DNA of 64,000 nucleotides from Psammoneis japonica (GCA_008632985.1 QPGO01000013.1:1-64000); one strand, 5' to 3'. Counted from the first letter of the stretch, positions 17,113-51,400 are shown. The notes: generated from the sequence alone by a model not told the origin. Translations and numbers: made by a program.

Positions 17113-20100
17113 ATGGTTCTCACTCGTCAGCAACAAACCGATGGTTTCGAGCACGTTGTTGGAACTGTGCTTGCCCAAGGTGCTGGGAGCCCTCTTCGTT
17201 TGGCTTTGACCCAAGACGGCACGGACTCGCATCAAGAACTGTTCACGTTCATGCCGTCCCAAATCGACTCGCTTGAGTGCGACAACGTCACTAACGTGAT
17301 CCCTTTGCCCCACGGTTGCAAGAACATGTTAGCAGCTCCAACCAGTCTGTGCATTGTCAAAGCACATGAAGGTCTTGACGTTGCCAATGACTCCTCGTTG
17401 TTCACGCATGACGAGTTCCTTGCCTGCTGCCTCAGCCCCGACTGCATGTCTTCTGTGTCTGTCGGCAGCTCACCCCTCGCACCTCCACATGTCACCAACC
17501 CGACCAAGGCACGTGACCCGGTGCGAGACTTCAAGCGAGGCATCAAGCGTGACCCCACCACTTTCACCGCTCTCAAATCCGACAAGCAGTGGCACACTTG
17601 GCACACCTCACTTGTGGCACAAGCTCGTGCCCAAGACGTTGAGTGCATTCTAGACTCGTCATACAAACCGACCAGCCCCGAAGACAAACCGCTCTTTGCT
17701 GAACAGCAAAAGCACATGTTCGCCGTCTTCGAACGCATTCTTCTCACCGACAAGGGCAAGGCTCTCATTCGCGAAAATGTGGGGTCTTCTGACACTCAGA
17801 CCATCTGCCGCGCCTTGTCTGAGCATGCGCTCACCTCCACCCGCGCATCTGTCGAGTCCTCCACCTTGCTCACGCACCTCACCACCGCACGGCTTGGTGA
17901 TGGCACTTGGAAAGGTCCGACCCACGGGTTCATCCTTCATTGGCAAGATCAGTTGCGCAAGTGCGAGGCACTCATCCCGGCCAGTGACCACTTCTCTGAA
18001 GGACAGAAGCACGTCATGCTCGAGAATGCCGCACACCCTGTCGAGGAACTCCGTGCTGTCAAGAACCAAGCTGATCAGCATCTTACGCAGAGTGGCAAGA
18101 GCCTCACATGCGATCAACACTGTGGCTTGCTTCTCTCCGCGGCAGCTCAATGCGACAGTGCGTTTCAACCCAAGACGACACCTCGAGCTCCCCGACGTGC
18201 CACATGCGCACACGACATCCACTCCGAGGAACCGTCCGACGATGTGTTCTGCGACATTGACAGCAACATTGACGTCCTTCAGGCCAATGCTGCCTGCACC
18301 CGTGGTCCCAGCCTCGCCGGTGACCAATGGAAACGTCTCCCTCCCGACCACCAATGGATTTGGGATTCGTTGCCCCATTCCTCCAAGGCGATCATCCTTG
18401 AGCATTCTCGTCCGCCTCCCCGCAACCCGCGAGCCAGCAACTGCCATGAGTCTGTTACAGCCAACCTTCACGTCCAACGCCTTGGGAGTGACGGTGATGT
18501 CAACTTGTCCAACACGACTCCTGCTGACTCTGGTGACCCCGCTCCAAATGTGGGTGCCACTTCGGATGATCCCATCCTGGCGCACCTCACCAAGCGCATG
18601 CCACTGCCACCTGGTGATCTGCAACGTCTGTTGTCTCCCAACCAAGCCCCCAACGCCAGTCGACCGGGGCCATCCGCCGCTCCCTCTACTCCGCCAGCTC
18701 CTGCCGGATGACATGGAACTTAACGGCCGCACTCACCGCCGCGTCAATGACCACAATGTCATTTGCTCTGCCTCTGCTCATCGCTCCACACGCACTGGTG
18801 CTCTAGTCGATCATGGGGCCAACGGCGGCATTGCTGGCGACGACGTTCGCGTCATTGCACGCACCTCTCGCCAAGTCGACGTTCAGGGCATTGACGACCA
18901 CCAATTGGTGGACATCCCCATTGTCACCGCTGGTGCCGTCATTGAGACCCAGCGTGGTCCCGTCATCGCCATCCTCCATCAGCACGCACACACGGGCAAG
19001 GGCAAGACCATTCATTCCTGCGGCCAGCTCGAATGGTGCAAACAGGATGTCAACGATCGCTCTGTCAAGGTGCCCAACGGCTTGCAATGCATTGCCACCC
19101 CTGATGGCTGTGTCATCCCCATTGACATCAAGGGTGGCCTGCCTCATGTTGCCATGCAACCTTGCACTGACGCTGAATGGGACACCCTGCCCCATGTCAT
19201 CCTCACCGGTGATGACACATGGGATCCTTCCGTCCTCGATCACTCTGTCACTGACGACGACCAGTGGTGCGACGCGATCTCTGACCTGCAGGACGATCCC
19301 ACTGCCAACCCATTTGACGAATGCGGCAACTGCCGTCATCGTGTCATTGTCAACGAGACCATCATGTCCGCTTCCTTGTCTGCCGATCACGCGTCAGCCC
19401 TCGATGATCACCTCATTCCAAACGACGACGTGTTCTACGAGAGTGTCATCTACACGCGATTGACCCCAAGGACGACAACGTCCCGCCCCCGGAGCGCACT
19501 GTGCAACCCAAGGACCCCCCCTTTGAGTCTCTTCGGCCTTGCTTTGGCTTCCCACCCACTGACACGGTCCGTCGCACTTTTGACTGCACCGCGCAGTGCG
19601 CCCGCATGCCCGCCGGTGCACACCTTGGGAAGGCCTGCAAATCACCCAACCCCGCCCTTAATGTGCACCGCCGCAATGAGCCTGTCGCCACTGACACAGT
19701 TTGTGCCGACACCCCGGCCATCGACTCTGGTTGCACCAGCGCCCAACTGTTTGTTGGCACCGAGTCTACCGTCACTGACGTCTGTGGCACCAAGACGGAC
19801 AAGGAGTTTGTCAACACACTCGAGGATCAGATCCATGAGCGTGGTGCCCCATCCAAACTCATCAGCGACCGTGCTCAAGTTGAGATCAGCAACAAGGTGC
19901 TCGGGATCCTACGAGCCCTCTTCATCTCCAGCTGGCAAAGTGAGCCTCACCAGCAACACCAAAACTTTGCCGAGCGTCGACACCAGACCGTGAAGCGCAT
20001 GGCGAACACTGTCATGGATCGTTTTGGTTCGCCCGCCCACACATGGCTGCTGGCGCTCATGCATGTGTGCTTCGTGCTCAACCACACAGCATCCCCACGT

Positions 20101-22784
20101 CTCCACTGGCGCACGCCCCTCGAGACTCTCACTGGCTCCACCCCGGACATCAGCCCATTGCTTCGCTTTCACTGGTGGGAACCCGTGTGCTTCCACCTCG
20201 ATGACTCCGATTGGCCGTCCGAATCCCGTGAGTTGCGTGGACGCTTTGTTGGCATTGCTGAGCATGTCGGCCACCAGATGACCTTCAAGATTCTCTCTGA
20301 CGAGACTCAGAAGATCCTCTGCCGGTCCAACGTACGCTCCGCTGCCACCGATCCTGCCGTTCGAAACCTGCGTCTTGATCCTCCTGATGGGGAGCCACCT
20401 GAACCCATCATCAAATCTCGCCATGACGACAACCCCGTCGATTCTCCTGATGGGGAGATCAGGACACCCAAGATGCCAGTTTTCGATCCGCAAGACATCA
20501 TCGGACGCACCTTCCTCATGCAGCCACAAGAGGACGGACAACGCCACAGAGCTCGCATCGTCAATGCCGTCGAAGACCACGAATGGAAAGTGAACGGCAA
20601 TCCCGAGCTCACTAAGTTCATCTGCTCTGTCAACAACGACGAATGCAAGGAAGTCCTTGCCTGCAACAACATCATGAATCACATTGAGCAAGAAGACGAA
20701 GACACTGCTGTTTGGAAATTTCGACGCATCGTGTCACACGAAGGACCTCTGAAGCCTCATGACCCAACCTGGAAAGGCTCAAGCTACAACATCATGCTTG
20801 AATGGGAAAGTGGGGAGATCACGTCCAAGCCTCTTGCCATCATCGCCAAGGACGACCCCGTCACCTGCGCCATCCATGCACGAGAGAACGGACTTCTCGA
20901 CACTGATGGCTGGAAGCGGTTCCGCACCATCGCGAGGCGCCAAAAGAAGCTATTTCGCATGGCCAACCAAGCCAAGCTTCGCTCCTTCCACACTGCACCT
21001 CGCTGCAAGTGCGGATGCGAAGTTCCCGGAACTGCAAACACGCCATGTCACTAGATGAACGCAACGGCAACCGCAAATGGGGAGACGCAACTAACCTCGA
21101 GATGGACCAACTCGAGGAATACGAAGTCTTCCATGACAGCGGGCCCTTCGAGTCTTCCACTCCTCCTGCGGGACACAAGAAGATCCAAGTGCACCCAGTG
21201 TGCGACGTGAAACACGACGGTCGCCACAAGGCACGACTCGTAGCCGATGGGCACCTCACGGACGCACCTGTCGACAGTGTCCACTCCGGAGCAGTCTCCC
21301 TCCGTGGCCTTCGGCTGATGATTTTCCTGGCCGAACTCAACGAGTTAGAGACATGGGCCACCGACATTGGCAATGCCTGCCTTGAAGCCACCACCAAGGA
21401 GAAGCTCTACATTGTAGCCAGACCCGAATTTGGCAAACTCGAAGGACACATCCTTGTCATCCACAAGGCCCTGTATGGACTGCGCAGCTCTGGTCTCCGC
21501 TGGCACGAGCGCTTCGCCGACTGCCTGCGAGCTGAAGGATTCTTCCCCTGCCGCGCCGAACCCGACATTTGGATGCGCAGGAACGGCGACCACTGTGAAC
21601 ACATTGCCATTCATGTGGATGACCTCGCCATTGCTGTGAAGGACCCTCAATCTTTTGTCGATGCTCTCACGGAAAAGTGCAAGTTCAAGCTCAAGGGTGC
21701 GGGACCCATTGAGTTCCATCTGGGTTGCGACTTTTCCCGGGATCCCGACGGAACCTTGTGCCTGTCTCCGCGCAAGTACATCGAGCGCATGGTTGACAGC
21801 TGCGCCCGACTGTTTGGGGAGAAACCTGCCACCAACGCCCTGTCACCTCTGGAGAAGGGTGACCACCCCGAACTGGACACTTCCGAACTGCTGGGGCCCG
21901 ATGGCATTCACAAGTTCCAGTCTCTTGTTGGTTCACTCCAGTGGGCAGTGTCCCTTGGTCGAATTGACATCACCACGGCCGTCATGTCACTCTCTAGCTT
22001 CCGAGCTGCACCCCGTCAAGGCCACTTGGACCGTGCCAAACGCGTCTGTGGTTGCCTCTCCAAGATGCAACACGGCGCTCTCCGCGTTCGTACGGAAGAG
22101 CCCGACCATTCGGATCTCCCTGCTCCGGCCCATGAATGGATGCATTCCATGTGTGGCGAAGCAGAAGAGATGATCCCGAAGGATGCTCCACCGCCCCTTG
22201 GCAAGTTCGTCACTGCCACCCACTGCGTCGATGCAAACTTGCACCATTGCATGCTCACCGGACGCTCTGTCATGGGAATGCTCCATTTCCTCAACAAATT
22301 CCCGGCTGATTGGTTCTCCAAGAAGCAAGCCACCGTGGAGACTGCGACCTGCGGGTCTGAATTTGTTGCCGCAAGGACTTGTGTTGAGCAGATTATCGAC
22401 CTGCGCATCACCCTGCGCCACCTTGGCGTCCCGATCTGTAATGTCAGTTGCATGTTCGGTGACAACAAGTCAGTTGTAGACAGTGCCACCATCCCGCACT
22501 CCAAGTTGCACAAGCGACACACCGCACTGTCGTTCCACCGTGTGCGTGAGGCAATTGCCTCTGGTTGCCTTGAGCTCCACTTCATCGAAGGCTCCCGCAA
22601 CCCTGCTGACATTCTCAGCAAGCATTGGGGTTGCTCCCAAATCTGGGACCTTCTCCGCCCCCTCATGTTCTGGAACTTCATTCCATCCGAAGTCGAATCT
22701 GTTTCTGTGACTCCTCAAGCAAACTGGGGAGTGACAGGATTTGAGCAGGATCCAGGTGCGCGCGAAACATCGTGTGCTGTTTAG
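17113..22784 (+). pseudogene. gag-pol polyprotein of Copia copy A (frameshifted, Tyr-depleted)
   Basis: Gag RDFKRGIKRD; protease LVDHGANGG; integrase VATDT...ISDRAQVE...NFAERR; RT DVKHDGRHKARLVA, DIGNACLEA, KALYGLRSSG, HVDD; RNase H GDNKSV...NPADILSK. Frame breaks near 18700, 19400-19500 and 21030. Confidence 0.93.
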
Positions 22785-23007
22785 TTTGCCGCGCACAGTT
22801 TTGTGTGCTTTAGTTCCGCGCGTTCGCGCGCGATGCAGTTTGCTTTCGAGCCACAAGGCTCACAAGAATGATGACAGCAGCCCGATTGTGCCGACTTGCA
22901 CGTCTTTCGGCTCCTGCAACGGTCTCTGAGCGGAGACTCATCTGCCATTTAGACAGCAGCAAGGAGTTGTTGTTTGAATTCTTGCCATTTGCCTTCAATT
23001 TCTGTCA
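22732..23007 (+). repeat. 3' LTR of Copia copy A
   Basis: Direct repeat of 15903-16178, followed by the TSD ATCAG. Confidence 0.95.
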
Positions 23008-23514
23008 ATCAGAATTTGAGAGATCAAAACTTGGATGATCATCAGTGCAAACTGGAAACATTGTTGAGCCACTGCAAAATGCACATCCATCATGGCAGGT
23101 GAGCTGCTTGAGCCCAACGTTGATGAGAGCACTCCTTGAGAACACAAACTTGAGGTGGATCCAGCATCCTTGTCATCACACATGTTTTTTGACATCTCCA
23201 GGCAGCACTTGTGGTGGCCCAACATTGGGAAAGTCAACGCCCTTTGGCAGCTCCACAAAAACAGGCCTTGACATGTTGGCACATGGGTGTGCACACTCCA
23301 GCCAAGCAAAATCAACTTGCCTTGATCTTCACTTTTAAAAAAGATGGACAGAACAAGGAACAAGTGAGAGTGGCAGTCAACAAGAAAGCAAAAGCATGGG
23401 CTTTGTTGTGGTGGTCACCTTTCTTTGTCTTGTGTTTGCCCAAGCCAAGTTGGCTTTTTCCATTTGTGCACTTGGCTGCTGCAAGAATGCATTGACTGTG
23501 CTTGTTCACAAGGG

Positions 23515-23690
23515 CCCCATGCTGCACAGGCAAAAGAATGGTCTCACCCTTCTTGGGCACATCAGCACTTGCAACAACACACCAATGTTTCCCATCAGCA
23601 TGGTCTCACACTTTTTTGGCCACAGCTTTCAGAGAGCTTCATGCATGCACAGCATGTCTGGGTCATTCTTGGATGCCTTCAGGTCACTCA
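23515..23690. repeat. Dispersed repeat segment; second copy at about 40757-40920
   Basis: CCATGCTGCACAGGCAAAA..TGGTCTCACCCTTCTTGGGCACATCAGCA...CAGCTTTCAGAGAGCTTCATGCATGCAC is present at both loci in the same orientation. Confidence 0.8.
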
Positions 23691-25316
23691 CAGTTGCTGT
23701 CAGCAAGAGATTCTTGTGCATGCAGTGCATGGTCATTAGACTGTGCAGGCTTGTGTGTGTGTGATGTGCAAGTGGAATGCACGTGGGGTTGCTGCTGAGA
23801 GGATCGACATGCAGTGGATTTTTTGCCAGCGCACAATCTACGCGGTCCACAGGGAAGATAAATTTACATTTGTTTCTGATGCTTGCACATGTCATTGAGT
23901 TTGCTTGTGCTTTAAAAAATCTTGCAGAACACCCCAAAAAAAGTGTGGAATCTGCACAAAAAAATTTCCATTTGACGGTCCAAACATGTGTGTCGTGAAG
24001 CACTTCTCACACTTGCGTTGCCAAAAGAGAATCACTGTCGGTGACACAGAACCCTGTCCTTCATGCGCAATGACAGCGCACGACAATGCACAACACCACC
24101 ATGGCACAGCAAACAATGCGAGCACCATTCAGGGATCTACGAGCTGCTGTTTGAAGATGAGATTGAGGTGTGCACACAACAAGTGCACAGCAGCGCAATG
24201 TTGGACAGATGACAGTCGTGCATTTCTTGCAATTTGCATGACAAATTGCCGTTGACGCCGATGACAACAACATTTTTCTCAAGCTCAGACAGGATGACTT
24301 TGCAATGGGCACTTGTCAAAATGATTGATTGCACCATTTAAAACATGTGTGTGCAAAGAAAGTCCCCCTGACAAAGTCTCAATCATTCAACAAATGCTGC
24401 ATGACAGAGACTTGTCAGAAAACAGAGCTCTGCATTGGTGTGATGTTTGCTTTTGAACGGAGGTTGCTCTCGAGGACTTTCATGACTGAACACATTCTCA
24501 AACTTAACAAACTAAATGTCTGCAATGACAAAAGACTCTGGGACACGTCACTGATGTCGCTGTCATTGTGACAACACACCACCGTCATGTCACTGATTTT
24601 TAGCGATGATGTGTGTAGCGTGCACGAAGTTTCCAGCACAAAAAAATTCAGAAAGTCCAATCATCTTGCCATCCATCAGCTTGTTGTGTGAATGCCTTAA
24701 ACCGATTGAACAACATTGATGCACTTCATTCGTGGGTCAAGTTGGGATTCTTCTCATTGCTTGTTGTCATGTCATTTTACAATGTTTTGACCCATGCCGT
24801 GTTTTCTGCTTTGTTGCTTCTGCTTGTGCGCCACCAACCACACACCACCCAACAGCTTTTCCTCTGCAGGGTGTGGCCAGTTGCACAGTCTTCACATCAA
24901 ACCCAGCCAAACTCTGGAGCTGTCATCATTCAGCATCAACACAGTTTGCAAAACTGTTCTCGACACTGTGTGGGTGAGGCTTGTCAAGATTGCAGTCAAA
25001 TGAAAGATGAAGCAGCAAGTGGCAGAGCTGGAGCATGAAGCAGCCACATGTGAGTGCATGGTGGGATGGGGCATGGACAGTGAGGTGATCCCTGCTTTTT
25101 TGGGACCAGCAATCACATTGGTGTGCCTCTCCTTTCCAGTGCCTCACTGAGCAACACCTTGTCATCGGGGGGCCATCGATTTGCATCGCGCCATCTTCCA
25201 TGATGGCTGCCTTGTGTTGCATCGTGACCAAGGAAGCCTCAACGATCGGGGCACTCTCCAGAAACTGATGGAAATGTGCCGGCATGCCATGTGGCAGAAG
25301 GCCCATTGTGGGTGAT

Positions 25317-28225
25317 TGTGGCAGATTTAAGAGTCATTCATGAAAAAATGAGACTGCAAAAGTGTAAAATGCTGAAGTGAAGTTCTGGAGTGGCGGCTCC
25401 ATGGAATGTTCTTTGTCTTGACTTTCTCCAGAGACTTTTTTCCTGCTCATGCACACAGAACATTCCTGAGGTTGTCCTTGAATGCAGAGCATCTTGAGAC
25501 ATCTGAGGAGTTGTCTTGAGACTTCCAAGGAGGTCTCAAATGATGTCCGAAGGCATCATGGGGGAGAAGTCGAGAGCTCTGAGGCTCGGTCTGCAGGTGA
25601 AGTTCTGGAGTGGCAGTTCCATGGAATGTTCTTTGTCTTGTCTTTTTCCAGAGACTTTTTCCTGCTCATGCACAGAACGTTCCTGAGGTTGTCCTCAAAT
25701 GCAGAGCATCTTGAGACATCTGAGGAGTTGTCTTGAGACTTCCAAGGAGGTCTTGAATGATGTCCGAAGGCACGGGAGAAGTCGAGAGCTCTGATTTGCT
25801 CTTCATTTTCTTGACCATTTTCTTGTGAGATTTGGATTGGTTGAAAGGGAACTTGAGGTTTGGTCGAGAAATGTCTTCTTGATTTACTTGGGCAGTGATG
25901 CACGTTTGCTGTTGCTTTCTGCACGTGTCCGGTTGTTTGCTCAGGAGGAAGACATTGAGCAATTGTTCATGTGGCACGCAGTTGTCTCTTGATGCATGTT
26001 CACGTAGATGTGGATTGGTTTTGTCCACAGTTCTCCATTGTTCTTTATGACATCACGAGGTGTCTGGTCATGAGCACGATGTGACACGTGCCTCCTCCAA
26101 TGAATCGCATCAGGGAGAGAAAGGAACGAGATGCCGTGCATTTGCTGTCTCAAGGCAATTTCCTTTTTGGATGATGACAGTGCCATTGGACTTCATTTCA
26201 TGTGTCTTGCATGAGCCAAGTCAGTGCAAGGCAAGTTTGGATTGACGAGGGTTGTTGTTTTGGAGAGAAACAAGGTCTCCTGCTTTGAAGTCATGGTCGA
26301 GTCACCGAGAGTTTTCACGCACATCATCTGCTTGCACTTGTTGTCGGCAGCAAGCACAAATGGTCTGCCAATGGACGTTGCATTGTGAGGGAAGGATCAT
26401 GTCACATCCAAAAGCAAGTTGACTGGCAGAGGCTTGCATGATGGTGTGTGCCATCGAGTTCATTGCCCAAGTTGCTGGGGCTGTTGTTGCATTCCACAGA
26501 TTCGGTTGATTAAATGCATCAGGATCATCAACTTGTTGGGCTCACATGCAGCTCCATAAAACATTGTGGGTTCATTCAAGCAGTGAGTTCACTTGTGGGT
26601 TTCACACTGCTGCAGCTTTAGATTTAATCCCATGAGAAACCAGTGGTTCTTGAAATTCAATGCCTGTGAATTCTGTGCCGTTGTTGTGCATGCAACAGAC
26701 CGGGCATGGAAATTTGCATGACCATGCTTTGTTGAATGCTCTGGCAGTTTCCAGAGCTGAAACTGTGGAGATCTGCTCCATGCCAAAACAATGAGCAGCC
26801 AGATCTGCCATTGCAAGGGCAGTCAATGTCAAACTTCGTTGGTTGACGCTGGTGCCTGCAGTGAAGGCAATTGGTCCGGAGGTGTCGACTGCCACCTGCA
26901 ACCAGGGGCTGATCTCAAGGGCTTGCACGTCCTTGGGAGGTGTTTTTCCACACACTCTGCAGTTCTCTTTGCACCTTGGACAGGTTTGGCATTGGTCTGT
27001 CTTGGTCTTGACGTCTTGGGTCAAACCTTGCCAGCAGCGGCACTGTCTGAGGGTCTTTTCCATCCGTTGGACACCTGGATGGCGCAAATTGACATGACGC
27101 CAAGTCAACAGAGGTGCTTGCAGAGCTGCAGGGATGACAATCTTGTCCTTAAAAAGGACTAGAAGCAGGTGTCCATCCTGCACCATGCAACTGCAATCAG
27201 ACAATTCTTTCTAACTCGGGTCGGTTTGAGTGAGTTGCAATGCTTTTTTGCACATGGCATCATCTTGCTGTGCTTCAATGATCACATCAAGTGAAATGGG
27301 TGAGCGAGTGTTGTTGTCACATTCAAAGGCAAAACACTCTTCCAGTGTTGGATCTGCAGCTGGCATCTCTGGGTCACTGGTTGTGTCGTGGCTTGGGATG
27401 AGCAATCCGCAAGCACATTTTTTGCTCCCGGCAAGCAAAGAATCCTGGGACCAAATTCCTCAACAATCAGCCACCAACGATGTGCGCAATCTGACTTGAA
27501 ATTTGCAAAGGTCAGATTCTTGTGATCCACACAAATCATGATCCCATGACCCAACAGGACATCATGATGCTCTCGTAGGATCATGACGATCAACAGCAAT
27601 TCTTGTTTGACAACTGGATGTCTTTTTTGCATGTTGGAGAGTTTGATGGAGTGAAATGCCATCGGGAGCTTGTCTTGAATGACAGCACTGCCCAGCTGGC
27701 ATTCTGAAGCATTGGTGCAGATGCAGATCATCTTGTTGAAATCAGGGTGGGCAAGAAGCGTTGCAGTGGAGATCCGTCTCTTGATTTCTTGAAACGCTTG
27801 CTCGTGCTTGGGTTTCCATTCAAACTTGACTGCTTTCGAGGTCACACTCAAAAGAGGTGCCAACAGATGGGCACAAAGTCACCACATCTTGCGACAGCAG
27901 TTTGTCATTCCAACAAAACCTCTGAGTTCTTTCTTTGTTTTGGGTGAAACCAAATTCATGATCACATTGACTTTTTTTGGCTGTGGTTTGATTCCGTTTC
28001 CAGCAATGACAAATCCTAGACACTCCGTTTCGAGAGCACAAAAGAACGTTTTTCACAAATTTGCTCTAAAGCCTGCATCATTCAAAAGCACAAACACTTC
28101 ATGCAATTGGGCGAGGTGATCATCAAAGGATCCCTTGCCAACAATCAACAGATCATCAACAAAAATAAGGACAAACTCCAAGTGTCCAAGCAAGTCAGTC
28201 ATGACTTTTGGAACAAGGGTGAAAT
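25317..28225 (-). mobile_element. Ty3/Gypsy LTR retrotransposon remnant (RT C-term, RNase H, integrase, probable 3' LTR about 25317-26086)
   Basis: RT IFVDDLL...ETECLG; RH LAHPDFNK, NASECQLG, QELL, DHKNL; integrase HxxLxHPG...CQTC, PWLQVAVD, NGTEF; end ETANARHLVPF* near 26110. A purine tract (GGAGGAGG) precedes TGTCACA at 26086. LTR limits are tentative and the element is 5'-truncated. Confidence 0.85.
25377..25794. repeat. Tandem duplication, period about 220 bp, inside the putative Gypsy LTR
   Basis: GTGAAGTTCTGGAGTGGC...GAGAAGTCGAGAGCTCTGA occurs at 25377-25582 and 25597-25794. Confidence 0.9.
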
Positions 28226-28499
28226 AATTTCTCTAAAGTGAAAAACCTGACTCCATTTGCTTCCAATCAACATGCCAAAGAAAAAAGCAATGAACTCCAA
28301 TGCCAGCAATGGCCAGCGCACATACCACAGGGATTGACCCTCAAACCTTTACACTCAAGCCTCTGCCACCATATTCCAAAACTTGAAGATAGCTGTGTAG
28401 AGCCGATGAAATTCTGCACGAAAGTCAAAAAAACTACCATACAAAATGCCCGTAGAATCAGTGTTATCACCGTCCGACGTGAAGACTATTTTTTTAAAT

Positions 28500-30219: not shown

Positions 30220-30249
30220 CGTCCACTGATGGTATATTAGTAACCCGCA

Positions 30250-31850: not shown

Positions 31851-31906
31851 TGCGCGTGCTGCCAGGTGGTTTCCCCAACCAACAAACTGCCGCACCAGCG
31901 GCCTCA

Positions 31907-37100: not shown

Positions 37101-37223
37101 CAGGTGCTCAACAGGAATCATTCGAAAATGTCGCGTGGGTCACAACCAATCTTTTGCATGAGGAAAAACACAAAATCGTGCAGAAATGTGCACAATGTCA
37201 CACGAGAGAGTGATTTGAGCCAA

Positions 37224-37336
37224 CAACTTTTCGGGAACTGAGCTGAAATGCCATCTGATTGACGGTGTTGGCCTTCACTGTGTGAATCAAAATGCCGTCA
37301 ATCAGATGGCATTTCAATTGATTTCCCGAGAAGTTG
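37224..37336. repeat. Long hairpin / palindrome (MITE-like or element terminus)
   Basis: Perfect 22-bp arms TGAAATGCCATCTGATTGACGG (37244-37265) / CCGTCAATCAGATGGCATTTCA (37295-37316), extended imperfectly to about 42 bp. Confidence 0.85.
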
Positions 37337-38179
37337 AAATTGCACACGGATGGATGGACAGACTGACAACAATTGTTTTTAGCACTCTTCCATCCTGCAC
37401 AATTTCCACGTGATGACTCTCAGGACCCGAATGATTCCCATTGGCATGACACCATTCTTGAGCATGGCTGGTTTCAGGCGTCGGAGGGGAAGCTGAAGGT
37501 TTCGAAAACTTCTGGAGTCAATGCAATGGTGCCAACCATCCTTGCCATCTACAAAACTCACCACATGAAGTTGCTTCACTGAAAGGAAGTGACCTGATCA
37601 GCAATGTGCATTTGGACTCAATCATTTGACGTGGATGTCAAGTTCATTGTCACAATCAAATGCTGTCACACCATGCTCAGCCAGAACTTCCTTGGCAGTC
37701 AGTCTCATTCGATCGACGAGTGCTTGTTCCTGTTGGCATTCGCGGTCGCCTCGCAATGTCAAGCTCAGAGCTGCAGTGCATGGTGAGACCAAAAAAAAGA
37801 AAGCCCATTCACATGCCATGTTGCAAAAATGAGGGCCGCAGAACCGTTGCAGTCACCGCCGCATGTTGCGCTCTTCATTGCGCGATTGCCATGGACCTGA
37901 AATGTGTCTTGGTCTCCAAACGCAGGCACTGAGAGGTCTCCAGCTGTGCCATGGCCGCTGCTGTGAGAATTTGACTGTTTCAGCCCCTTGTCCTTGCTGC
38001 AGGCACTGGGGGATCAAACATGACTGCTGCTGCCAACAATGATCAATCCCCAGAAAAAATCTTCTGCACTGAATGTCCAATCAAGACAAAGAGAGCCATC
38101 TGGCAACAGCATTGAAAACTCTGCTTGAAATTGGAACTGTTTGGATGACTTGGGCACTGCTGCAAAAACAAGAAGATTG

Positions 38180-40494: not shown

Positions 40495-41299
40495 TGTGTT
40501 GACCATGTGCCTGTTAAACAACTCTGTCAGCAGCGTGCAATTCTTGTGTTGTAAAGTGAAATTATCATCACATGAAGGATTGGTGTTGCTGCATCATTCA
40601 TCTGTGTCACAACAATCTGAACTTTAAAAAACACCAAGCTGACTGTTCAGCCACAAGACATGGATGCTTGAGTCTTAAGTTTTGTCTTTAAGATTGTTTC
40701 TTCTGGCAAGATTTTAGATGCTTTTGTAGTTACCTTTTTTTTCCACTGTGCTGCAATGGCCATGCTGCACAGGCAAAATGGTCTCACCCTTCTTGGGCAC
40801 ATCAGCATTTGCAACAATGCACCAATGTTTCCTGTCAGCATGGTCTCCCACTTTTTGGGCCACACAGCTTTCAGAGAGCTTCATGCATGCACTGCACATC
40901 TGGGTCATTGGATGCCTTCAAGTTGCACAATGTGGGTTCCTCAATTGGCTGCGGTTTGGCTGTGGTCACTGCCAGCAAGAGATGCATGTCCTGGGCAATT
41001 GCCTCATCATGAGGAGTGGTGGAGACATGCAAAACAGTTTTGGGTTGACATTGAAGTTGAGACTCAGTGGCCACAGGGGTCACATGCACTCTTCAACCCA
41101 AGTGAGTGGTGACTGTCAGACTTGACTGTTTTGCTGTTTGTGAGCCTCCTTCTCATTTAACAACATTGAGATCCATGTGTTGACTTTGCAATGGCTGCTT
41201 GCGGGTGTGTCTGCATCACTGGCATGATCCACATCAGCAGTTGATGACAAGGCTGATGCATCTGGGAGTGGAGCTTGATCTGCTGTGTGCTGTCATCTG

Positions 41300-41900
41300 G
41301 CAGTCATGTCTGTCTGGAGCAAATCTAACTCTTGCTTCTTTCTGAAAATGACACTTGACTTGCCATGCTCTGAACTTTGAGGAATGATGGAGAGGATCCT
41401 TTGATGGTCTCAAATGGGTTGTCAGACTTGACATGGCATTGTGAAGAACCAAGTCCTGTCTCCAGGCTGAGGATGTGACCCTGGCTGCAGATTGTTCTTT
41501 TGACACCTGTGTGGGGCATCCAGAGGATGAGAGGGGAAGTGTCACATTTTCAGCTTTTCTTGGACATTGGCTGAGAGCTCTGTGGGTGAATCACATCTTA
41601 GAAATTGAGCTGTGCAGCAGTCACACTCATTGTTGGCACAGCAAACAATGGTGCACAGTCACAAATGGTGGTCAATGGCTTCAGACCAGCAATGGCAAGC
41701 CAGATTGAGTTGTGTTCTTGCTCTTGTCATCTCAGAGATCTTGGACATGTTTGTCTCTCCACCATTTGAAAATGTGCGCTCACTTCACAGTGCATCACAT
41801 GTTGCCATTGCTGACATGCTGATTTGACAAATGCACGCAGCCACTGCTGGCAAAACATCTGCAGCTGGCATGACAGTGTTTTGAGCATTGACTGTGAGAC
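41300..41900 (-). mobile_element. Highly degenerate Copia integrase remnant
   Basis: Minus-strand fragments ARTQLNLACHCWSEAIDHHL and ILSLETGLGSSQCHVKSDNPFET resemble Copia ARTML..RWP.AI..HLW and L...TG.VSPQY/FHV..D..FET. Confidence 0.55.
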
Positions 41901-42214
41901 TGCAAGCACAGGCTCCATGTGCAACTTTGGCACACAGAGAGTTTTTTCAGATGTGATGGACTTTTGCGAATGGGTGGACAAAGAATGCAAAATGTTTGTA
42001 GAGAGCAGGGTGTTTCAAAACAAAGTAATTTCTGTCATTGGCCATGTGCAGTGTTGGGAAGTGCAGTTGTCAGTGCAAGCATCAAATCAGCTGGCAACAA
42101 AAAATTGCTGTCTCAGGGATCATTGCAGATGCAGCCATGGAAGCAGGTTGCAGCAGCATGTGTGTTGATCCAGAGAGACAGCTTTGTTGCCTTGGCAGTC
42201 TCTGTGATTGTTCA

Positions 42215-43700
42215 CACAGCAGATCACATTTAGATCACAGAAAAATGGCAGAAAGACTGCACACACATTGCAAAACCACCACCACAGCCACAGGCATGGC
42301 TTGGTGCATTGTGCAGTGCTGGGAAGCAGCCGCTTTTGCTCTGGAAATCTTTTGTGCCATTGTTTGCTGCAGAGAGAGCAAGATCTGACTCAGCATTGTC
42401 CTTGACAGGGAGGTGCAGTTGTTGGCAAGGTGAGAAGCCCAGCACTCCCGATGCTTGCAACACACTTGTGTGACCATCAACAGCCTTGGTGTGCAGCTGT
42501 TTGTCCTCAGGAGCTGCACTGTGCCCAGCACACTTGCCCCAGAATGAGTGCTTTTTGCATTCATTGGGCAAGATCTTGTGCTTCTGATCATTGTCATGAT
42601 TGCTCCTGGAGTCCTCTTTCATTGGCTTTTTTCCCTTGGAAGCATGATTTGGAGAGCTCGGGGGGGGGGGGGGGGGCATTGTTGGTGGAACATGGTTTCT
42701 TGCATGACTTGACCTCAAAAAGCTCTTCTTCATCTCTGCTTGAAGTGTGAGCCTGTGGTCTCTTGTTCTTTTGCAGGAGCTGCCCACTTTTTAGACTTTG
42801 TGAAGATCTGGGGACAATTCCCTGCCCGCAGAACAGGTGCAGATTTTCAGGTCAGGCCCACCATCACAGCTGCTCCTGCACTTCATGATGACATCCATGC
42901 AAGCATCTGGACTTCTGCTTTGGGCAGAGCATGGCCTTGAGGAGTGCCACACTCTCACACTTGTTTTGTTGCCAATGGTGCGCTGAGCTTCTTTTCCATT
43001 GCCACAATGGTGTTGTTGGAAGGCAGGGTGCCCCAAAACCAAATGAGTGGCAGGCACCAGCAGCTGTTCCAAGCATTTCTTGCTTTTTGGTTGAGGTGGT
43101 TGGCTGGCTGAAACTGTGCAAATTTGCTTGGCTGAGATTTTTGAAGGCTGTGCTTTTGGCCCACATCATGCCTTTGCTCTTGGCCAAAGCAGAAGGAGCC
43201 ATGACTTCATTGACATCAGCTGTTGTTGCCAGAGTGTTGTTCCAGCCAAAGGTTTTGATGGCAAGTTCTTTGAGAAAGATGGAGATGTCGGCAAACTCAA
43301 GACCAAACTGGGCACTCAGCAGCTTGGCAGCGGATTCTAAAAAAATGGGCACATCACCCTTTTCTGTGCTGCAGCCTGCTGGTGTGTCAGCAAAAGGACC
43401 TGCAGGGTTGGAGCTGCAGATGTTGCTGCAGGCACAAGCAAGTCATTTGCAACAGGCTGGACAGCCACCCATGTGGCCTGAGCAATGGCACTCACAACCA
43501 CGCCAGTGCCCAAAACAATGGGGTCACATTTTGAAGCAGTGGAGCACAATGTTGTGTTGGTTTTGTCATGCAGCACACATCATGTTGGCTCTGAGAGAAG
43601 GTTGCTGGCTTGGCTGAGAACACTTCATTGCAGAGAAAGTGTGTGAGTTGGCAGTTTGATCAGAGCCAGATGAGACAACTGGCTTGGCAAAGAAAACAGG
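42215..43700. repeat. Dispersed repeat family member sharing collinear blocks with 55285-56320
   Basis: CACAGCAGATCACATTTAGA.CACAGAAAAATG.CAGAAAGACTG (42215 vs 55287), GCAAAAGGACCTGCAG (43390 vs 56016) and TGTTGGCTCTGAGAGAAG...CTTCATTGCAGAG (43582 vs 56211). Confidence 0.75.
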
Positions 43701-45496
43701 TGAACCACCACAAAAATTGTGATTGTGTCTGAATTTGGTGGAGAGGACTCTAAAACAAAAAAATTGTCTTCCCAACAAATGTTTGAGATGTCTTGGACAG
43801 TTTGGGAGGCACAGGATCAACAATTGGCCCAGCCAGACACAAACAGTTGATCACGTCTTGTCGTGTGACCAACCCAAAATCACAACAATGATGTGCTGTA
43901 ACATGGTGGAGTGCAATCATCCCTCCATCATCTGCCTGGTCATTTGAAATGGCCCTGCAATGTTAAAATAACTCGCAACATTCCACCGTCACTTTTCAGG
44001 TGGCAAAAAGCAACAACAACTTGTTTGCTCCTCTGTTCCATTCATTTGGGTCCACCAGGATGAGTGTTGTCCAGCAACTGTGCATTCCAACTCAGTCAAA
44101 GGCATCTTTCTTGGATGCCTCCCCAACACTGCCAAGAATGTCATGTGGTGTGACCATGCCATGTCTTGTGTCAAGGTGGACAAGCACTCCCATTGCAGTG
44201 AGGGTGTGAATGACCTCCCACAAGACAAAAAATGCTCTGAATGCCATTCACATGCAATGTGCTCAGAATGGTGAACCCTTCCCAGCCAAAACAACTGAAT
44301 CCACTGTGGAGAAATTTCACTTCACTGGCAATCCCTTTTCAAAGACACTTGCCTGCAAGATGAAACGCCCCCTGTTGGATGCCCCATTTGGCATGAGCAT
44401 CACCACAGATGCATTGTTCAACCGTGCCCATCTGGGTTCTTGGTGCACACATTGTTCCAGTCAATGGTGTTGATGTCTTCACTCAAGATCAGGTGATTGC
44501 TGGACTCCATTGCCTCCATGACAGGGGCACCCCAGAATTTGACATTGTCTTTGCTCCAGAGTGCCTTCTTGACTCCACATGTTGTCCACAAGCAACGCAC
44601 CCTGGGCCTGATTGAACACAACATTTTCTCCCCCCCCCCCCCTGCCAAGGAAGAAGAGGAACATGGTCTGGAATTGACCATGGCTGACATGTGTGCTGTT
44701 GCAGAGTTGCGGTTCCTGGATGTTGATCTTTCCACTGTGGATGACGTGGATCCCAAGTTCTTGCCTGCAATTGATCTGGATGCTGGCACCTTCAGCATTT
44801 TTGCTCTCTCGTCTCATGCAGTGACCCCCAAGGAATGGCAGCTGGATGGTTTTACCCACAATTGCCTCAAGAAACTCCCCACTTGGTGTCTTTGGTGTGA
44901 TGGTGAATTCAAGCAATTGGACCATTTTCATGCACTGGGTGTGTTGGAAAACCCATTCCCCACCCTCCAGGTGCTGTTGTCCTTCATCCCCACTGGCAAT
45001 GCAGTGTCAAGAGGATGGCACACGTCAATCATGCCACTGTTGTGATGGATCCCCTTGCACCGCCCTGCTCTGCATTGCCTCCAGCCAGTCCACATGTGCT
45101 CTTCTTGTGTGGAACAACCTGTTCAACAGCTGTTCATTGCTCTCTCAGCTTCCATGGCCTGCCAAACACATGCTGGAGATGCACAGGATGACTCCCTTGT
45201 GGTGTGTCCAAATGGACAAAGCCTGTGCCTCTTGGTGCAAGGGCTGTTTTGGCATGGACCTGGATTGGTCGATGGTGCCCCTGATCCTCCATGCACTGCA
45301 GGGACATTCTGAATCAAATGTCCCATGGGAGACCCACATCAACAGCACATTGATGAATGCAAAGCTCCTTTTTTGGAATGTGACACACAACAACTGCACT
45401 TGTGCTGGTGCTTTTGAAGGCAAACATGTTCTCCTTCTATGGAGGGGATGATTTTGCGATTGCATGTCCAGAGGAATCCATTGCAGTCAAGATTTA

Positions 45497-48400
45497 TGAC
45501 AGAAAATGAAGATGACTGGGTGGAAGAAAACAACAACTCCTCACTGCTGTCTGAACAGCAGATGAGTCTCCATGCAGAGACCGTCACAGGAGCCGAAAGA
45601 CTGGTGTCGTGACATTGGTGCTGCTGTCATCATTCTTGTGAGCCGTGTGGCTCAAAAGCAAACTACATCGCACGACGTGCACGGAACTAAAAGAGCACAC
45701 ACAATTGTGTGTGACAAACTAAAATCTTGTTCAAATCCTGTCACTCCCCAGTTTGCTTGAGGGGTCAACAGCGACAGATTCGAAGTCAGATTGGTTGAAA
45801 GCCTCGGGGTCAAAGTTCCAAAACATTAGAGGATGAAGGAGGTTCCAGACTTGGGAGTGACCCCAATGCTTGCTGAGGATGTCAGCCGGGTTGCGGGAGC
45901 CTTCGACAAAATGAAACTCGAGGAATCCAGGAGGCAATCGCCTCACGCACACGATGGAACGAGAGGGCGGTGTGTCGCTTGTGTAACTTGGAGTGCGGGA
46001 TGGCAGCACTGTCCACAACCGACTTGTTGTCCCCAAACATGCAACATGTTTCACGAATGGGAACGCCAAGGCAACGTAAAGTGGTGTGCAGATCAATGAT
46101 CTGCTCAACACATGTCCTTGCGGCAACAAACTCGGATCCACACGCAGCAGTCTCGACAATTGCTTGTTTCTTAGAGAGCCAATCAGCCAGAAACTTGTTG
46201 AGGAAATGGAGGATGCCGGTGACAGAGCGTCCAGTGAGCATGCAATGGAACAAGTTCGCATCAACGCAGTGCATGGTGGTGATGAACTTGCCAAGCGGCT
46301 CGGGCGCATCTTGCGGGAGCAGCTCTTCTACCTCCCCACACACGGATTGAGCCCAATCGCACATGGGCTTGGGGAGGTCCGAACAGTCGGGCTCCTCAGT
46401 GCGCACTTGAAGGGCGCCATGATGCATCTTGGAGAGGAATCCGCAGATGCATTTGGCACGGTCTAGGTGGCCTTGACGGGGCACTGCGCGGAAGCCAGAC
46501 AGGGACATGACAGCCGCAGTGGTGTCAATGTGACCCAGAGATGCGGCCCATTGCAGGGATCCAATCAAGGATTGGAGTTGGTGGATGCCGCCTGGTTTGA
46601 GTGACTCGGAAGTGTCAAGCTCAGGGTGGTCACCCTTGTCAAGGGGTGAAAGCACATCAGTGTGGGGCTTCTCCCCAAAGAGGTGCACGCAGTTGTCAAT
46701 GATGCGCTCAGTGCACTTGCGGGGAGCAAGGCACAGGGTGCCGTCTGGGTCATGGGTGAAGTCGCAGCCAAGATGGAACTCCAATGGTCCAGTGCCCTTG
46801 AGCTTGAACTTGTGCTTCTCTGTGAGGGTGTCTGCAAAAGCCTGGGGGACCTTCATGGCGAAGGCCAGGTCGTCCACATGCACTGCCACGTGTTCGCAGT
46901 GGTCACCATTCCTGTGCAGCCAGATGTCGGGTTCGGCCTTGCATGGGAAGAAGCCTTCAGCACGCAAGCAATCAGCAAAGCGCTCATGCCATCTGAGGCC
47001 GGAGCTGCGGAGTCCACACAAGGCCTTGTGGATGACAAGGATGTGTCCTTCCAGGTCACCAAACTCGGGGCCTGCCATGATGTACAGTTTCTCCTTGGTT
47101 GCAGCTTCAAGGCAGGCATTCCCAATGTCAGTGGCCCAGGTCTCTAGTTCATTGAGTTCGCCCAGGAAGATCATCATTCGCAGGCCACGGAGGGACACCA
47201 CTCCGGAACAGACACTGTCAACGGGCACGTCTGTGAGGTGTCCATCGGCAACAAGCCTTGCTTTGTGCCGTCCGTCATGTTTGACGTCACAGACGAGATG
47301 CACCCGGATCTTCTTGTGTCCTGATGGAGCACTGGAATCCTTGTGGTGTCCGCAGTCGTGGAAGACCTCGCACTCATCAAGTTGAGTCATCTCAAGGTCC
47401 GTTGCATCTCCCCACTTGCGGTTGCCATTGCGCTCATCAAGGGCCATGGCATGCTTGCAGTCCCGTGGCACTTCATGCCCGCACTTGCATCATGGCGCAG
47501 TGCGAAAGGAGCGCAACTTGGCTTGGTTGGCCATGCGGAATGGCTTCTTCTGACGAAGTGCTGTCTTGCAAAAACATCTCCATCCTTTGGTTTCTAGGAG
47601 GCCGTGCTCACGCGCGTAGATGGCGCAGGTGACGGGGTCGTCCTTGGCAATGATGGCAAGGGGTTCGGACGTGATCTCCCCATTCTCCCATTCAAGCATG
47701 ACGTTGTGGCTTGAGCCTTTCCAAGAGGGATCATGGGGTTGCAATGGTCCTTTGTGAGATGCGATGCATTGGAACTTCCAGAGAGTTGAGTCCTCATCTT
47801 CTTGCTCAATGTGGTGCATGATGTCATTGCAGGCTGGGACTTCCTGCACTCATCATTGTTGACAGAGCAAATGAACTTGACCAGTTCAGGATTGCCTCCG
47901 ATTTTCCAGTCGTGGTCCTCAAAGGCTTTGATGATGCGGGCTCTGTGGCATTGTCCATCCTCTTGTGGCTTCATGAGGAAGGTGCGTCCTTTGATGTCCT
48001 CGGGGTCAAAGACCGGCATTTTGGGCATCCTGATTGCCTCCCCATCTGGTGAATCTGGTGAATTCTCGGAGTCGTGGCGGGATTTGATGACAGGGTCAGC
48101 AGATTCCTTGTCAGGAGGATCAAGACGCAGGTTTGGAGCAGACGGATCACGGGCGGAGCGCACATTGGAACGGCAGAGAATCTTCTGAGTGTCGTCAGAA
48201 AGAATCTTAAACGTCATTTGGTGACCAACGTGTTTGGCAATGCCAACGAAGTGACCACGTAATTCACGGGATTTGGATGGCCAGTCGGAATCATCCAGGT
48301 GGCAGCACACGGGTTCCCACCATTGAAAGTGGAGGAGCGGGCTGATGTCGGGGGTAGAGCCAGACAGCACCTCGGTGGGGGTGCGCCAGTGGAGCTTGGC

Positions 48401-51400
48401 GGATGCCGTGTGGTTGAGCACAAAACACACGCAGATCAGGGCGAGCAGCCAGGTGCAAGCTGGGGACCCGAAGCAATCCATGATGGTGTTGGCCATGGTC
48501 TTCACAGTTTGGCAGCGGCGTTCAGCAAAATTCTGATGCTGGTGGTGAGGCTCACTTTGCCAGCTAGAGATGAAGAGGGCACGAAGGATGCCAAGAACCT
48601 TGTTGCTGATCTCAACCTGAGCACGGTCGCTGATGAGCTTGGACGGGGCACCGCGATTACGAATGCTGTCTTCAAGGGTGTTGACAAATTCTTTGTCAGT
48701 GTTGGTGCCACACACGTCAGTGACAAGAGATTCCATGCCGACAAAGAGCTGGGCGCTGGTGCAGCCAGAGTCAATGGCAGGGGCGTCGGAGCAGACCGTG
48801 TCGGTGGCAATGGGTTCATTGCGTCAGTGGACATTGAGAGCCGGGTTGGGTGATTTGTGTGCCTTTTTCAGGTGCGTGCTGGCTGGCATGCGGGCACACT
48901 GCGTCGTGCAATCAAAAGTGTGGTGGACAGTGTCCTTTGGGAGAAAACCAAAGTGGGGGCGGAGGGACTCAAAGTCGGGATCCTTGGGATTGAGTTTGCG
49001 CTCATGGCATTCACAGAAGAAATGAGATGTCGGGAGCAGGTGATCATCAAGGACAGAGTCTGTAAGCAAGGCGTTGTTGACGACATGGCGGTGACGACAG
49101 TTGCCGAACTCATCGATGAGGTTCGCAGTCGGGTCGTCTTGCAGGTCAGACACGGCATCATGCCATGTCTCCTCGTCCGTGAACTGGTGGTCAAGGACAG
49201 ATGGATCCCATGTGTCATCACCAGTGAGAATGACATGCGGCAGAGTGTCCCATTTGGTGTCAGTGTGCAGGTGCATGGCGATGTGCGGGAGGCCGGCTTT
49301 GGCATCAATGGGAATGATGCATCCATCAATGGTGGTGAGGCGCTGCAGACCATTGGGGACCTTGATGGACCGATTGTTGACATCGTGTTTGCACCACTCG
49401 AGTTGGCCACAAGAGTGCATTGTCTTCCCCTTTCCAGTGTGGGTGTGCTGGTGAAGGATGGCAATGGCAGGGCCGCGTTGCATGTGGATGACACTGCCGG
49501 CAGTGACAATGGGGATGTCGACCAGTTGATGATCGTTGATGCCTTGGACGTCAACCTGGTGACCAGTGCGGGCAATGACACAAACATCATCACCGGCAAC
49601 ACCGCCGTTTGCACCACGATCCACGAGAGCGCCTTTGCGAGTTGACTTGTGGGTCGAGGCAGAGTGGATGACATTGTGGTTGTTGACGCGACGGCATTTG
49701 TGGCCGTTGATCTCAATGTCAGTGTCATTGGGCTTCACGTTGGAATGGACGAAAGGTGCAGAGCCGGGTGGTTTCTCGCCAGAATGGGCGGAAGGAGGCT
49801 GTTCAGGTGCCAGGAGATGTTGCAAGTCGCCGGGTGGCAGAGGCTTGTGCCTGGTGAGATGAGCCAGAATGGGGTTAGCATCGGCTGCATTGGCTGCAGC
49901 GTCGGATTGTGCCAAGGCTGACGCAAGATTGTGAGTGTTGGCGGACAAGTTGACATCGCCATCACTGCCAATGTGGAGGTCATGCAGGTTGACCACCATC
50001 AAGTCATGGCAGTTGCCCGTGTGGGCGGTGCGCGAGCCAAGAATGATGGCCTTGGTGGGCTGGGGCAAGGTGTCCCAAATGCGCTGGTGGTCCGGCGGAA
50101 TGTGACGCCATTGTTCCCTGGTGAGGGAGTTGCCACGGGTCTGTGCAGCACAAGCTTGTGTGACGTCAACATCACTGTCGATGTCGAAGAATGCATCATC
50201 ATCAGGGTCGTCAGGAACCAGGTCATGTTCGTAGATGGCACGGCGCAGAGCGTGAGGAGCCGTCTTGGGGGCGAACGTGCTGTCGCACTGTGCTGCAGCA
50301 GAAAGCAGGAGTCCACAGTGCTCTTCGTAAGAGAGTCCCTTTCCATTCTGCGTGCGAAACTGATCGGCCTGATTCTTCACCGAATGGAGTTCCTCGATGG
50401 GATGTGCGGCGTTCTCAAGCATGACACGTTTCTGGCCAGCAGAAAAATGGTCCGCACCCGGGATGAGAGCTTCATGCTTGTGGAGCTGGTCCTGCCAGTG
50501 GAGCACAAAGGCATGAGTGAGCCCTTTCCAGGTGCCATCACTGAGGCAAGCAGTGGCGAGGTACGTGAGAAGGGTCGAGGACTCCAGGGATGTGCGAGTG
50601 GAAGTGAGGGCATGCTTGGAAAGGTCACGACACACCGCTTGAGCATCAGAGGAGCTGACGTGTTGACGAACAAGAGCCTTGCCTTTGTCATTCTGCAAGA
50701 TCCATTCAAATGCGGCGAACATGCACTTCTGTTGTTCAGCAAACAAGGCCTTGTCCTCAGCTGTGGAGGGCTTGTACATCGGGTCAAGAATGCGTGTGAC
50801 ATCTTGGGAGCGGGCCTGTGCAATGATGGAGGTGTGCCACATGTGCCACTGTTTGTCAGACTTGAGAAGCGCGAAGGTGAGTGGGTCACGTTTGATGCCT
50901 TGTTTAAAGTCACGCACGGGATCATGTGGTTTGGGTGGCAACGAGCCAGGAGTGGGAGCAGATGGTGCTGCACCCATGGAGAGGGACGCCACACACTCAG
51001 GACTAAGACGACAGTTGGTGAACTCCTCTTGTGTGAACAATTGAGGGTCATTGCTGACATCCGCGCCGCCATGCGCTTTTGCCGTGTGCAGGCTAATCAA
51101 TGCAGCTGTCTGTGCTTTGTAACCACGTGGCAAAGGCATTTGATTGGTTCCGTCATTGCACACAAGGGCATCCAATTGCAACGGAGCAAAAGTGAAAAGG
51201 TCCTGATGCAAATCGGTTCCATCAATGTTGAGAGTGGAGCGCAATGGACTGTCTGCGGCTTGATTCAGAACAGTGCCTAGAATGTGCTCGAGGCCATCGA
51301 TTTGTTGTTGCCTGGTGAGAACCATTTTGGAACTGGGTGGATGTCGGAACTGGCCAGAGTCGGGGGGTGAGCTTGAAATGACTTGAAACTTGACTTGAAT

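Follow-up and report, generated by a model that had tools for sequence, protein, structure and literature searches.

A 64,000-nt stretch of the diatom Psammoneis japonica (GCA_008632985.1 QPGO01000013.1:1-64000, hereafter the window) carries two complete Copia-type long terminal repeat (LTR) retrotransposons, elements A and B, in which the dinucleotide TA is strongly depleted and CA and TG are in excess. Former tyrosine (Tyr) codons of both elements now encode histidine (His) or cysteine (Cys), often differently in the two copies. We conclude, with a probability of about 0.85, that the transposons of this diatom genome underwent hypermutation in place and copy by copy, confined to TpA and converting it to TpG or CpA. 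The direction of this change is carried by conserved protein columns and by the LTR pair of A, and not by the raw count of reciprocal sites between the copies.

Loss of tyrosine and direction of change

The LTR retrotransposons were delimited by comparison of the window with itself and by LTR alignments (coordinates of all features are given in Table 1). The LTRs of A and B are direct, end in TG...CA and are flanked by 5-bp target-site duplications. A Copia-type reverse transcriptase (RT; Pfam RVT_2) was found in each element (E = 7.6e-25 in A and 6.1e-20 in B), and the two copies are approximately 75% identical (5062 matches, 1735 mismatches). Both align over nearly the whole length of P0003, an intact 1881-residue polyprotein from public assemblies with the RT at residues 1367-1577. 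Against this protein, three frame changes were seen in A (tblastn frames 1/2/1/3) and two in B. The Pfam scan of A, B and intact P0003 returned RVT_2 alone and no gag, protease or integrase domain; gag, protease and integrase of this diatom Copia lineage are too diverged for the Pfam models.

Both copies were mapped residue by residue onto P0003. Tyr was kept at 4 of 61 positions in A, where it was otherwise replaced by 25 Cys, 13 His and 8 Phe among others, and at 3 of 62 positions in B, with 29 replacements by Cys and 12 by His. In contrast, the residues other than Tyr were kept at 937 of 1713 positions (55%) in A and 905 of 1731 (52%) in B, and the difference was highly significant in both copies (Fisher p = 4e-15 and 2e-15, respectively). 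At 18 positions one copy has His and the other Cys, and the codons are always CAY versus TGY. At a further 8 positions one copy retains Tyr (TAY) while the other has His or Cys.

An earlier note on this DNA had listed nine reciprocal and six one-sided sites, fewer than the 18 and 8 found by coordinate mapping. The RT-region examples that it quoted are present in the translations, with His/Cys pairs at 21282/47210 and 21678/46814, and with two sites, 21474/47018 and 21777/46715, where A alone retains Tyr. Both copies also have Cys in the NAY-L motif and read HVDD in place of the family YVDD, as it had described.

The same note took TAY to be the common ancestor of CAY and TGY, and the homologues agree: they carry Tyr, and over the whole polyprotein Arg occurs in 1 of 12 homologues at just two of the 18 reciprocal positions and is never the majority residue. 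A search with the RT-RNaseH frame of A listed 150 homologues, and the 77 covering the frame were aligned. At the 14 columns with at least 60% Tyr, A has five His, four Cys, two Tyr, two Phe and one Ile, and B has six Cys, four His, two Phe, one Leu and one Thr, so that Tyr is kept at none in B. Retention of the other conserved residues of this alignment ranged from 67 to 100% in A and from 57 to 100% in B, and was 86-100% for conserved Gly, Leu, Glu, Asn and Trp. In two columns, one with Tyr in all 77 homologues and one with Tyr in 73 of 77, A has kept Tyr and B has Cys. Tyr is always among the three most frequent residues at the five reciprocal His/Cys columns of the RT-RNaseH frame, and Arg never among the first four; therefore CGY was not the ancestor.

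Intact homologues with Arg, His or Cys at the affected columns would, in the reasoning of the earlier note, have spoken against a Tyr ancestor. Tyr and not Arg was found there, so its argument stands for the set of columns, with two qualifications. At column 331, counted above as a Tyr column, all six of the closest intact homologues have His, so that this His is probably native. The YVDD column is His in 16 of 77 homologues, and the closest intact homologues have Tyr. Among 269 database homologues, the RT-RNaseH frames have a median of 4.2% Tyr and 4.7% His+Cys (for A and B see Table 1). Seven of these 269, from ENA and JGI assemblies, are Tyr-poor; they have His or Cys at conserved Tyr columns in patterns unlike those of A or B, and some are partly converted. 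The direction TA to CA/TG is supported by these comparisons.

Action on integrated DNA

When an element integrates, its LTRs are identical to each other. Those of A now show 22 mismatches in 276 aligned bases, comprising six reciprocal CA/TG sites (12 mismatches), three sites with TA versus CA/TG, three with CG versus TG, and four others. CpG decay would predict approximately 0.05 reciprocal sites by our arithmetic, and 19 of the 22 CpG are intact in both LTRs, with 3 changed. As the LTRs of A were identical at integration yet now differ reciprocally, the process acted on integrated DNA. Three TAs survive in both LTRs of A, all in the same T-rich context. From these small numbers, we estimated the loss per LTR of A at approximately 90% of susceptible TpA and approximately 7% of CpG, and the ratio of TpA to CpG loss rates at the order of 30. 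The LTR pair of B shows two reciprocal sites and two sites with TA versus CA, with 7 CpG changed and 5 kept. The two copies of the target-site duplication of B differ by one TA/TG change. Our conclusion that the process acts on chromosomal DNA in place is indirect, being drawn from the LTR pair of A together with the target-site duplication of B.

The joint outcomes at former Tyr sites shared by the copies (A/B) were Cys/Cys at 19, His/His at 5, His/Cys at 6 and Cys/His at 5, where independence predicts approximately 20 concordant and 15 discordant sites. These outcomes are close to independence, and each copy was therefore mutated on its own. Runs tests along each element showed no strand-coherent clusters of His or Cys (p = 0.8 in A and 0.09 in B). 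Independent outcomes together with the absence of strand-coherent runs thus indicate that both strands were struck site by site in each copy, which is what the earlier note had proposed.

Dinucleotide composition and flank preference

TA occurs at an observed/expected ratio (obs/exp) of 0.15 in A and 0.12 in B; in the two elements CA stands at 1.37-1.52 and TG at 1.51-1.65. The RT-RNaseH region has 8.5 TA per kb in A and 4.5 in B, compared to a median of 46.3 (range 28.6-78.3) in 20 related loci, and a G+C content of 0.57 in A and 0.56 in B versus a median of 0.484 in the same loci. The best 80 of 519 related metagenome loci, with TA obs/exp between 0.33 and 1.06, served as the baseline set. 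On the sense strand of both Copia copies, C exceeds G; GC skew is -0.12 to -0.20 in A (16001-22000) and +0.16 to +0.22 on the + strand for B (48001-52000), and its median is near 0 in the RT region of related intact loci.

Between A and B, reciprocal dinucleotide pairs of the type CA/TG number 110, against 16 for AC/GT, 25 for AT/GC and 0 for TA/CG as controls. We estimate that approximately 40 of the 110 could stem from CpG decay. As part of them may have this origin, the raw reciprocal count alone is no proof. The target is the dinucleotide TpA and not Tyr as such.

The flanks of TAs surviving in the transposon tracts were compared with those of TAs in the gene tracts. Survivors were enriched for TTAA (4.3x) and CTAA/TTAG (2.6x), and depleted of ATAT (0.07x), ATAC/GTAT (0.22x), CTAT/ATAG (0.25x) and GTAC (0.4x). 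The preferred target is RTAY and the refractory context is YTAR. Per strand, TA followed by T or C was lost most and TA followed by A was lost least. Cys and His occur at former Tyr codons of A and B in a ratio of 54:25, and this excess of Cys fits the flank preference because the sense-strand A of a Tyr codon always precedes a pyrimidine.

Transposon tracts and host genes

The window was profiled for TA at 1-kb and 200-bp steps. Transposon tracts contain 248 TA in 43.5 kb (5.7 TA/kb), in contrast to 686 TA in 20 kb (34 TA/kb) in the gene tracts. TA obs/exp is 0.0-0.15 in the TA-poor tracts, where CA and TG reach 1.4-2.4, and 0.4-0.8 in the TA-normal tracts, where CG is approximately 1. The borders between the tracts are sharp to approximately 200 bp. 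Within this one window, the process is restricted to transposons and host genes are spared.

Two older fragments, a Gypsy fragment and a Copia RT fragment, have no Tyr in 641 translated residues, compared to 2.2-4.7% Tyr in five host open reading frames (ORFs). This agrees with the earlier note, which had assigned the same pattern to both. For the Gypsy fragment the agreement is mainly one of composition: its RNase H frame has no homologues among longer proteins at E <= 1e-10, and among solved structures it aligned weakly to Ty3 alone, with one conserved Tyr being His in the window. CG obs/exp is 0.07-0.2 in the older tracts and 0.67-0.88 in the younger A and B. As the older tracts are also CpG-depleted while A and B are not, TpA was lost before CpG. 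Element B is a nested insertion because it sits within an older TA-free tract.

In the hypermutated tracts at 17000-23000 and 45700-51500, numerous ORFs of 150-830 aa overlap one another on the two strands. Long frames stay open in both orientations because TAA and TAG are erased and TGA is the sole stop made; the aligned translations contain 0 stops in A and 2 in B. The transposon tracts also hold a tandem duplicate of approximately 200 bp (25377-25582 / 25597-25794, 92% identity) and a dispersed 165-bp repeat (23517-23681 / 40760-40920, 89% identity).

Among the TA-normal genes, the SPT6 frame has its best named relatives in the diatoms Seminavis, Odontella, Cylindrotheca, Cyclotella, Fistulifera and Thalassiosira, at 50-58% identity, with top matches overall at 62-64%, which makes the host a diatom other than these. 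The island at 28503-30297, between TA-free tracts, holds two TA-normal ORFs of 263 and 357 aa, one with a P-loop, with 4.2% Tyr. The Pfam scan of these two ORFs gave no match, and they may represent a host gene escaping the process or an untargeted mobile gene. The TA-free tract at 61001-62000 has low CpG and is flanked by an ORF and by histidinol dehydrogenase. It showed no similarity to the rest of the window in the self-comparison, and may be a solo LTR or an old fragment.

Table 1. Positions of transposon features, TA tracts and genes in the window, with the basis of each call.
Feature	Position	Strand	Basis or remark
Copia element A, complete, hypermutated	15903..23007	+	LTR pair; tblastn to P0003; TA obs/exp 0.15
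5' LTR of A	15903..16178	+	276 bp, alignment to 3' LTR
3' LTR of A	22732..23007	+	276 bp, alignment to 5' LTR
Target-site duplication of A, left	15898..15902	.	5 bp, identical to 23008-23012
Target-site duplication of A, right	23008..23012	.	5 bp
RT-RNaseH reading frame of A (P0001)	21009..22784	+	Tyr 0.7%, His+Cys 9.3%
HVDD instead of family YVDD, copy A	21612..21623	+	translation, family consensus, alignment column 289
Copia element B, complete, hypermutated	45497..52385	-	LTR pair; P0003 alignment; TA obs/exp 0.12
5' LTR of B	52139..52385	-	247 bp
3' LTR of B	45497..45743	-	247 bp
Target-site duplication of B, left	45492..45496	.	last base differs from right copy (TA here, TG there)
Target-site duplication of B, right	52386..52390	.	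5 bp
RT-RNaseH reading frame of B (P0002)	45882..47471	-	Tyr 0.2%, His+Cys 11.7%
HVDD instead of YVDD, copy B	46869..46880	-	translation
Gypsy fragment (integrase zinc finger, RNase H)	26605..27878	-	0 Tyr in 400 residues, TA obs/exp 0.06-0.09
Older Copia RT fragment	38181..38903	+	0 Tyr in 241 residues, TA obs/exp 0.03, CG obs/exp 0.2
TA-free tract at window start	1..800	.	1 TA in 800 bases
TA-poor tract with A and Gypsy fragment	14601..28200	.	TA profiles
TA-poor tract with B and older Copia	30401..58600	.	TA profiles
1-kb TA-free tract between two TA-normal genes	61001..62000	.	2 TA in 1000 bases
Host control genes (SPT6, P5A-type ATPase, Tim17 family)	1131..13630	.	TA obs/exp 0.4-0.8, CG approximately 1
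SPT6	1131-7279		TA-normal
P5A-type ATPase	7521-11641		TA-normal
Tim17-family gene	12059-12520		TA-normal
P-loop ORF	28503-30297	-	TA-normal
ORF	59361-60764		TA-normal
Histidinol dehydrogenase	62164-63681		TA-normal

Other copies in the source sample

One sample carries this DNA, as contigs, in four listed entries with no RNA data set among them (figures below are from run X1); the assembly was probably made from this sample, whose library type is unrecorded. Among 40 listed of the 460 variant places, 27 lie inside A: 7 are single changes from CA/TG to TA, 8 belong to reciprocal pairs, 5 are of CpG type and 7 are other. At the seven single changes, TA is present in further family copies where A has CA/TG, and is in the majority at 16238 and 16302. 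The reciprocal places form four adjacent pairs, each a swap of CA and TG between A and other family copies. The family of A is extremely repetitive, with 12,980 contig pieces of at least 90% likeness on a 20-kb stretch in this run. The summed depth, which is not a copy number, is 3e4-1.4e5 over A (within region 15338-23341) versus approximately 55 in the single-copy flanks. The k-mer contigs match TA-poor stretches in 22982-27374 with 0-2 differences at single-copy depth.

Proposed process and rival explanations

In the process that we propose, TpA would change to TpG or CpA through an A:T to G:C transition on either strand, proceeding near to saturation and halting at the border of the transposon tract. 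Such changes remove Tyr (TAY to CAY for His or TGY for Cys), erase TAA and TAG stops and raise G+C. With Tyr lost and stops erased, the elements would therefore be killed by missense while long frames persist. The likeliest route would be enzymatic: adenine on either strand of TpA would be deaminated to hypoxanthine within the chromatin of silenced repeats, a chemistry also proposed for Bigelowiella natans. The cue leading it to the transposons could be their repetition, a small RNA, or marks on chromatin or of DNA methylation.

Several points weigh against this reading. All of the evidence is standing sequence, with no de novo mutation observed. Extreme TA depletion was seen in none of the best 80 related metagenome loci, where the minimum was 0.33. 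The two reciprocal sites in the LTRs of B could be CpG decay. The effect of the preceding base on the His or Cys outcome was a trend that did not reach significance (p = 0.23). The single sample is probably the source of the assembly, so that its agreement with the assembled letters is only partly independent. Finally, TpA is palindromic, so that adenine-directed and thymine-directed mechanisms give the same signature and are inseparable by sequence.

This last point admits a variant of the same in-genome process through thymine, for example its oxidation to 5-hydroxymethyluracil through a TET/JBP-type activity, after which mispairing with G or faulty repair would turn T into C. TpA is self-complementary and T to C on either strand yields the observed CA and TG products, and 5-hydroxymethyluracil is used by other protists. 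We nevertheless regard the thymine route as unlikely, since A after U is the natural target of ADAT/TadA-type enzymes. The sole paper on the signature also argues for adenine deamination (Mettrop et al., bioRxiv 10.64898/2026.01.13.699255). ADAR-like A-to-I editing of double-stranded transposon RNA, or editing of cDNA, fixed by integration, has in its favour that A to G with a 5' U preference matches the taste of ADAR, as stated in the same preprint (bioRxiv 10.64898/2026.01.13.699255), and that the source sample contains the family of A in very highly repeated form. It is very unlikely in view of the six reciprocal and three TA versus CA/TG differences between the LTRs of A, the change in one copy of the target-site duplication of B, the His and Cys outcomes without strand coherence, and the even greater TA depletion of old fragments and of the 1-kb non-coding tract. 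The host is moreover a diatom and ADARs are, to our knowledge, confined to animals; ADAR has a 3' G preference, whereas the TAs surviving best here are those before A or G. Editing of the ADAR type fixed by retrotransposition was rejected as the sole cause, as the LTRs are not identical and the clusters are not strand-coherent.

Miscalls at modified TpA, for example by long reads in the assembly, would have to be reckoned with since modified bases cause systematic long-read errors and the library type of the sole run is unrecorded. Yet such an artefact is highly improbable: the k-mer contigs of the run reproduce the TA-poor stretches in 22982-27374 at single-copy depth with 0-2 differences, states at the same site differ between copies and between LTRs, unlike a context-determined miscall, and Tyr-poor homologues occur in unrelated ENA and JGI assemblies. 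We give almost no credence to methyl-CpG decay (CG to TG/CA) from a CGY (Arg) ancestor as the explanation of the His/Cys pairs and of the CA/TG excess. CpG decay does occur here, with CG obs/exp of 0.07-0.2 in the older tracts, Arg to His in B at 4 of 14 conserved Arg columns, and an estimated 40 or so of the 110 reciprocal sites possibly of CpG origin; however, it cannot remove TA down to an obs/exp of 0.02-0.15, the homologues have Tyr rather than Arg at the affected columns, and the LTRs of A keep 19 of 22 CpG yet show six reciprocal sites. As the sole cause it is ruled out by the Tyr of the homologues and the LTR pair of A. An equally negligible chance is left to a low TA content that is native or selected (avoidance of stops, TATA-like sites or UA-cleaving RNases) and not mutational. 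Host genes are moderately TA-poor too (obs/exp 0.4-0.8) and some relatives go down to 0.33, but this account is contradicted by the loss of catalytic and strictly conserved Tyr (for example Cys in B at the column with Tyr in 77 of 77 homologues), by frame changes in both copies, by the depletion of non-coding LTRs and fragments, and by relatives with 28.6-78.3 TA per kb against 4.5-8.5 in A and B.

Relation to known systems and significance

So far a single preprint, on one chlorarachniophyte, Bigelowiella natans, describes hypermutation of foreign DNA restricted to TpA. In mutation-accumulation lines, two integrated viral regions mutated at approximately 1000 times the rate of the remaining genome; of the 231 mutations in these inserts, 230 were A to G or T to C, and all 230 fell on TpA. 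TpA-poor windows rich in CpA and TpG cluster in that genome, reverse transcriptase and DDE domains are over-represented among its TpA-poor coding sequences, and an ADAT2-like DNA adenine deaminase was proposed (Mettrop et al., bioRxiv 10.64898/2026.01.13.699255). The window resembles that case in the restriction to TpA, the products TpG and CpA, action on both strands, confinement to foreign DNA and the bias towards G+C. It differs in that the host is a diatom (a stramenopile) and not a rhizarian, the targets are high-copy LTR retrotransposons, and the depletion is near saturation (TA obs/exp 0.02-0.15) versus 0.45 in the B. natans giant-virus insert. The preference for RTAY over YTAR seen here is not reported in the available part of the B. 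natans text, and the evidence there comes from mutation-accumulation lines, here from standing sequence.

Fungal repeat-induced point mutation (RIP) shares dinucleotide-specific transitions on both strands, repeat or transposon DNA as the substrate, sharp borders and copy-by-copy killing. RIP turns CpA into TpA (C to T), enriches A+T and TpA, and creates stop codons, whereas the change from TpA to CpA or TpG in the window raises G+C, erases TAA and TAG and keeps long frames. RIP itself was rejected, with the direction opposite, TA obs/exp at 0.12-0.15 and G+C raised. Editing of animal retroelements by ADAR and APOBEC also leaves clusters of deaminase-type transitions in retroelements, but it acts before integration on RNA or single-stranded cDNA and is strand-coherent, while here the LTRs differ, strand coherence is absent and the host is a diatom. 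Methyl-CpG decay in silenced transposons is alike in converting a palindromic YpR dinucleotide to TG or CA on either strand and in the same tracts, but its substrate is not TpA, and CpG loss is much slower here (approximately 7% versus 90% per LTR of A, on small numbers). Our literature search, with most subscription journals outside its coverage, returned no report of the TpA signature in diatoms or other stramenopiles. The diatom case is a second, independent and more extreme instance of the recently described hypermutation, a mirror of RIP and not RIP.

For annotation, elements of this kind lose Tyr, gain G+C and keep long false ORFs, which gene finders would call as false genes. Pfam models may miss domains of hypermutated elements, a possibility to be read with the fact that intact P0003 also matches RVT_2 alone. 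Dating by LTR divergence overestimates age here, because 15 of the 22 mismatches between the LTRs of A are of TpA type.

The signature at saturation in diatom LTR retrotransposons extends the phenomenon to a second, ecologically dominant lineage. Tentatively, and with somewhat less than even confidence, we suggest that diatoms share with chlorarachniophytes a TpA-directed DNA-editing genome defence: an old adenine-deaminase system, common to the stramenopile-alveolate-rhizarian (SAR) group or wider, that would find silenced transposons and viral inserts, remove susceptible TpA approximately 30 times faster than methyl-CpG decays, prefer RTAY, and kill by missense with frames left open. Gene knockouts are routine in model diatoms, and experiments could identify the enzyme responsible and how it is targeted. 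If true, a SAR-wide system of this kind would be the mirror image of fungal RIP and genetically dissectable in diatoms.

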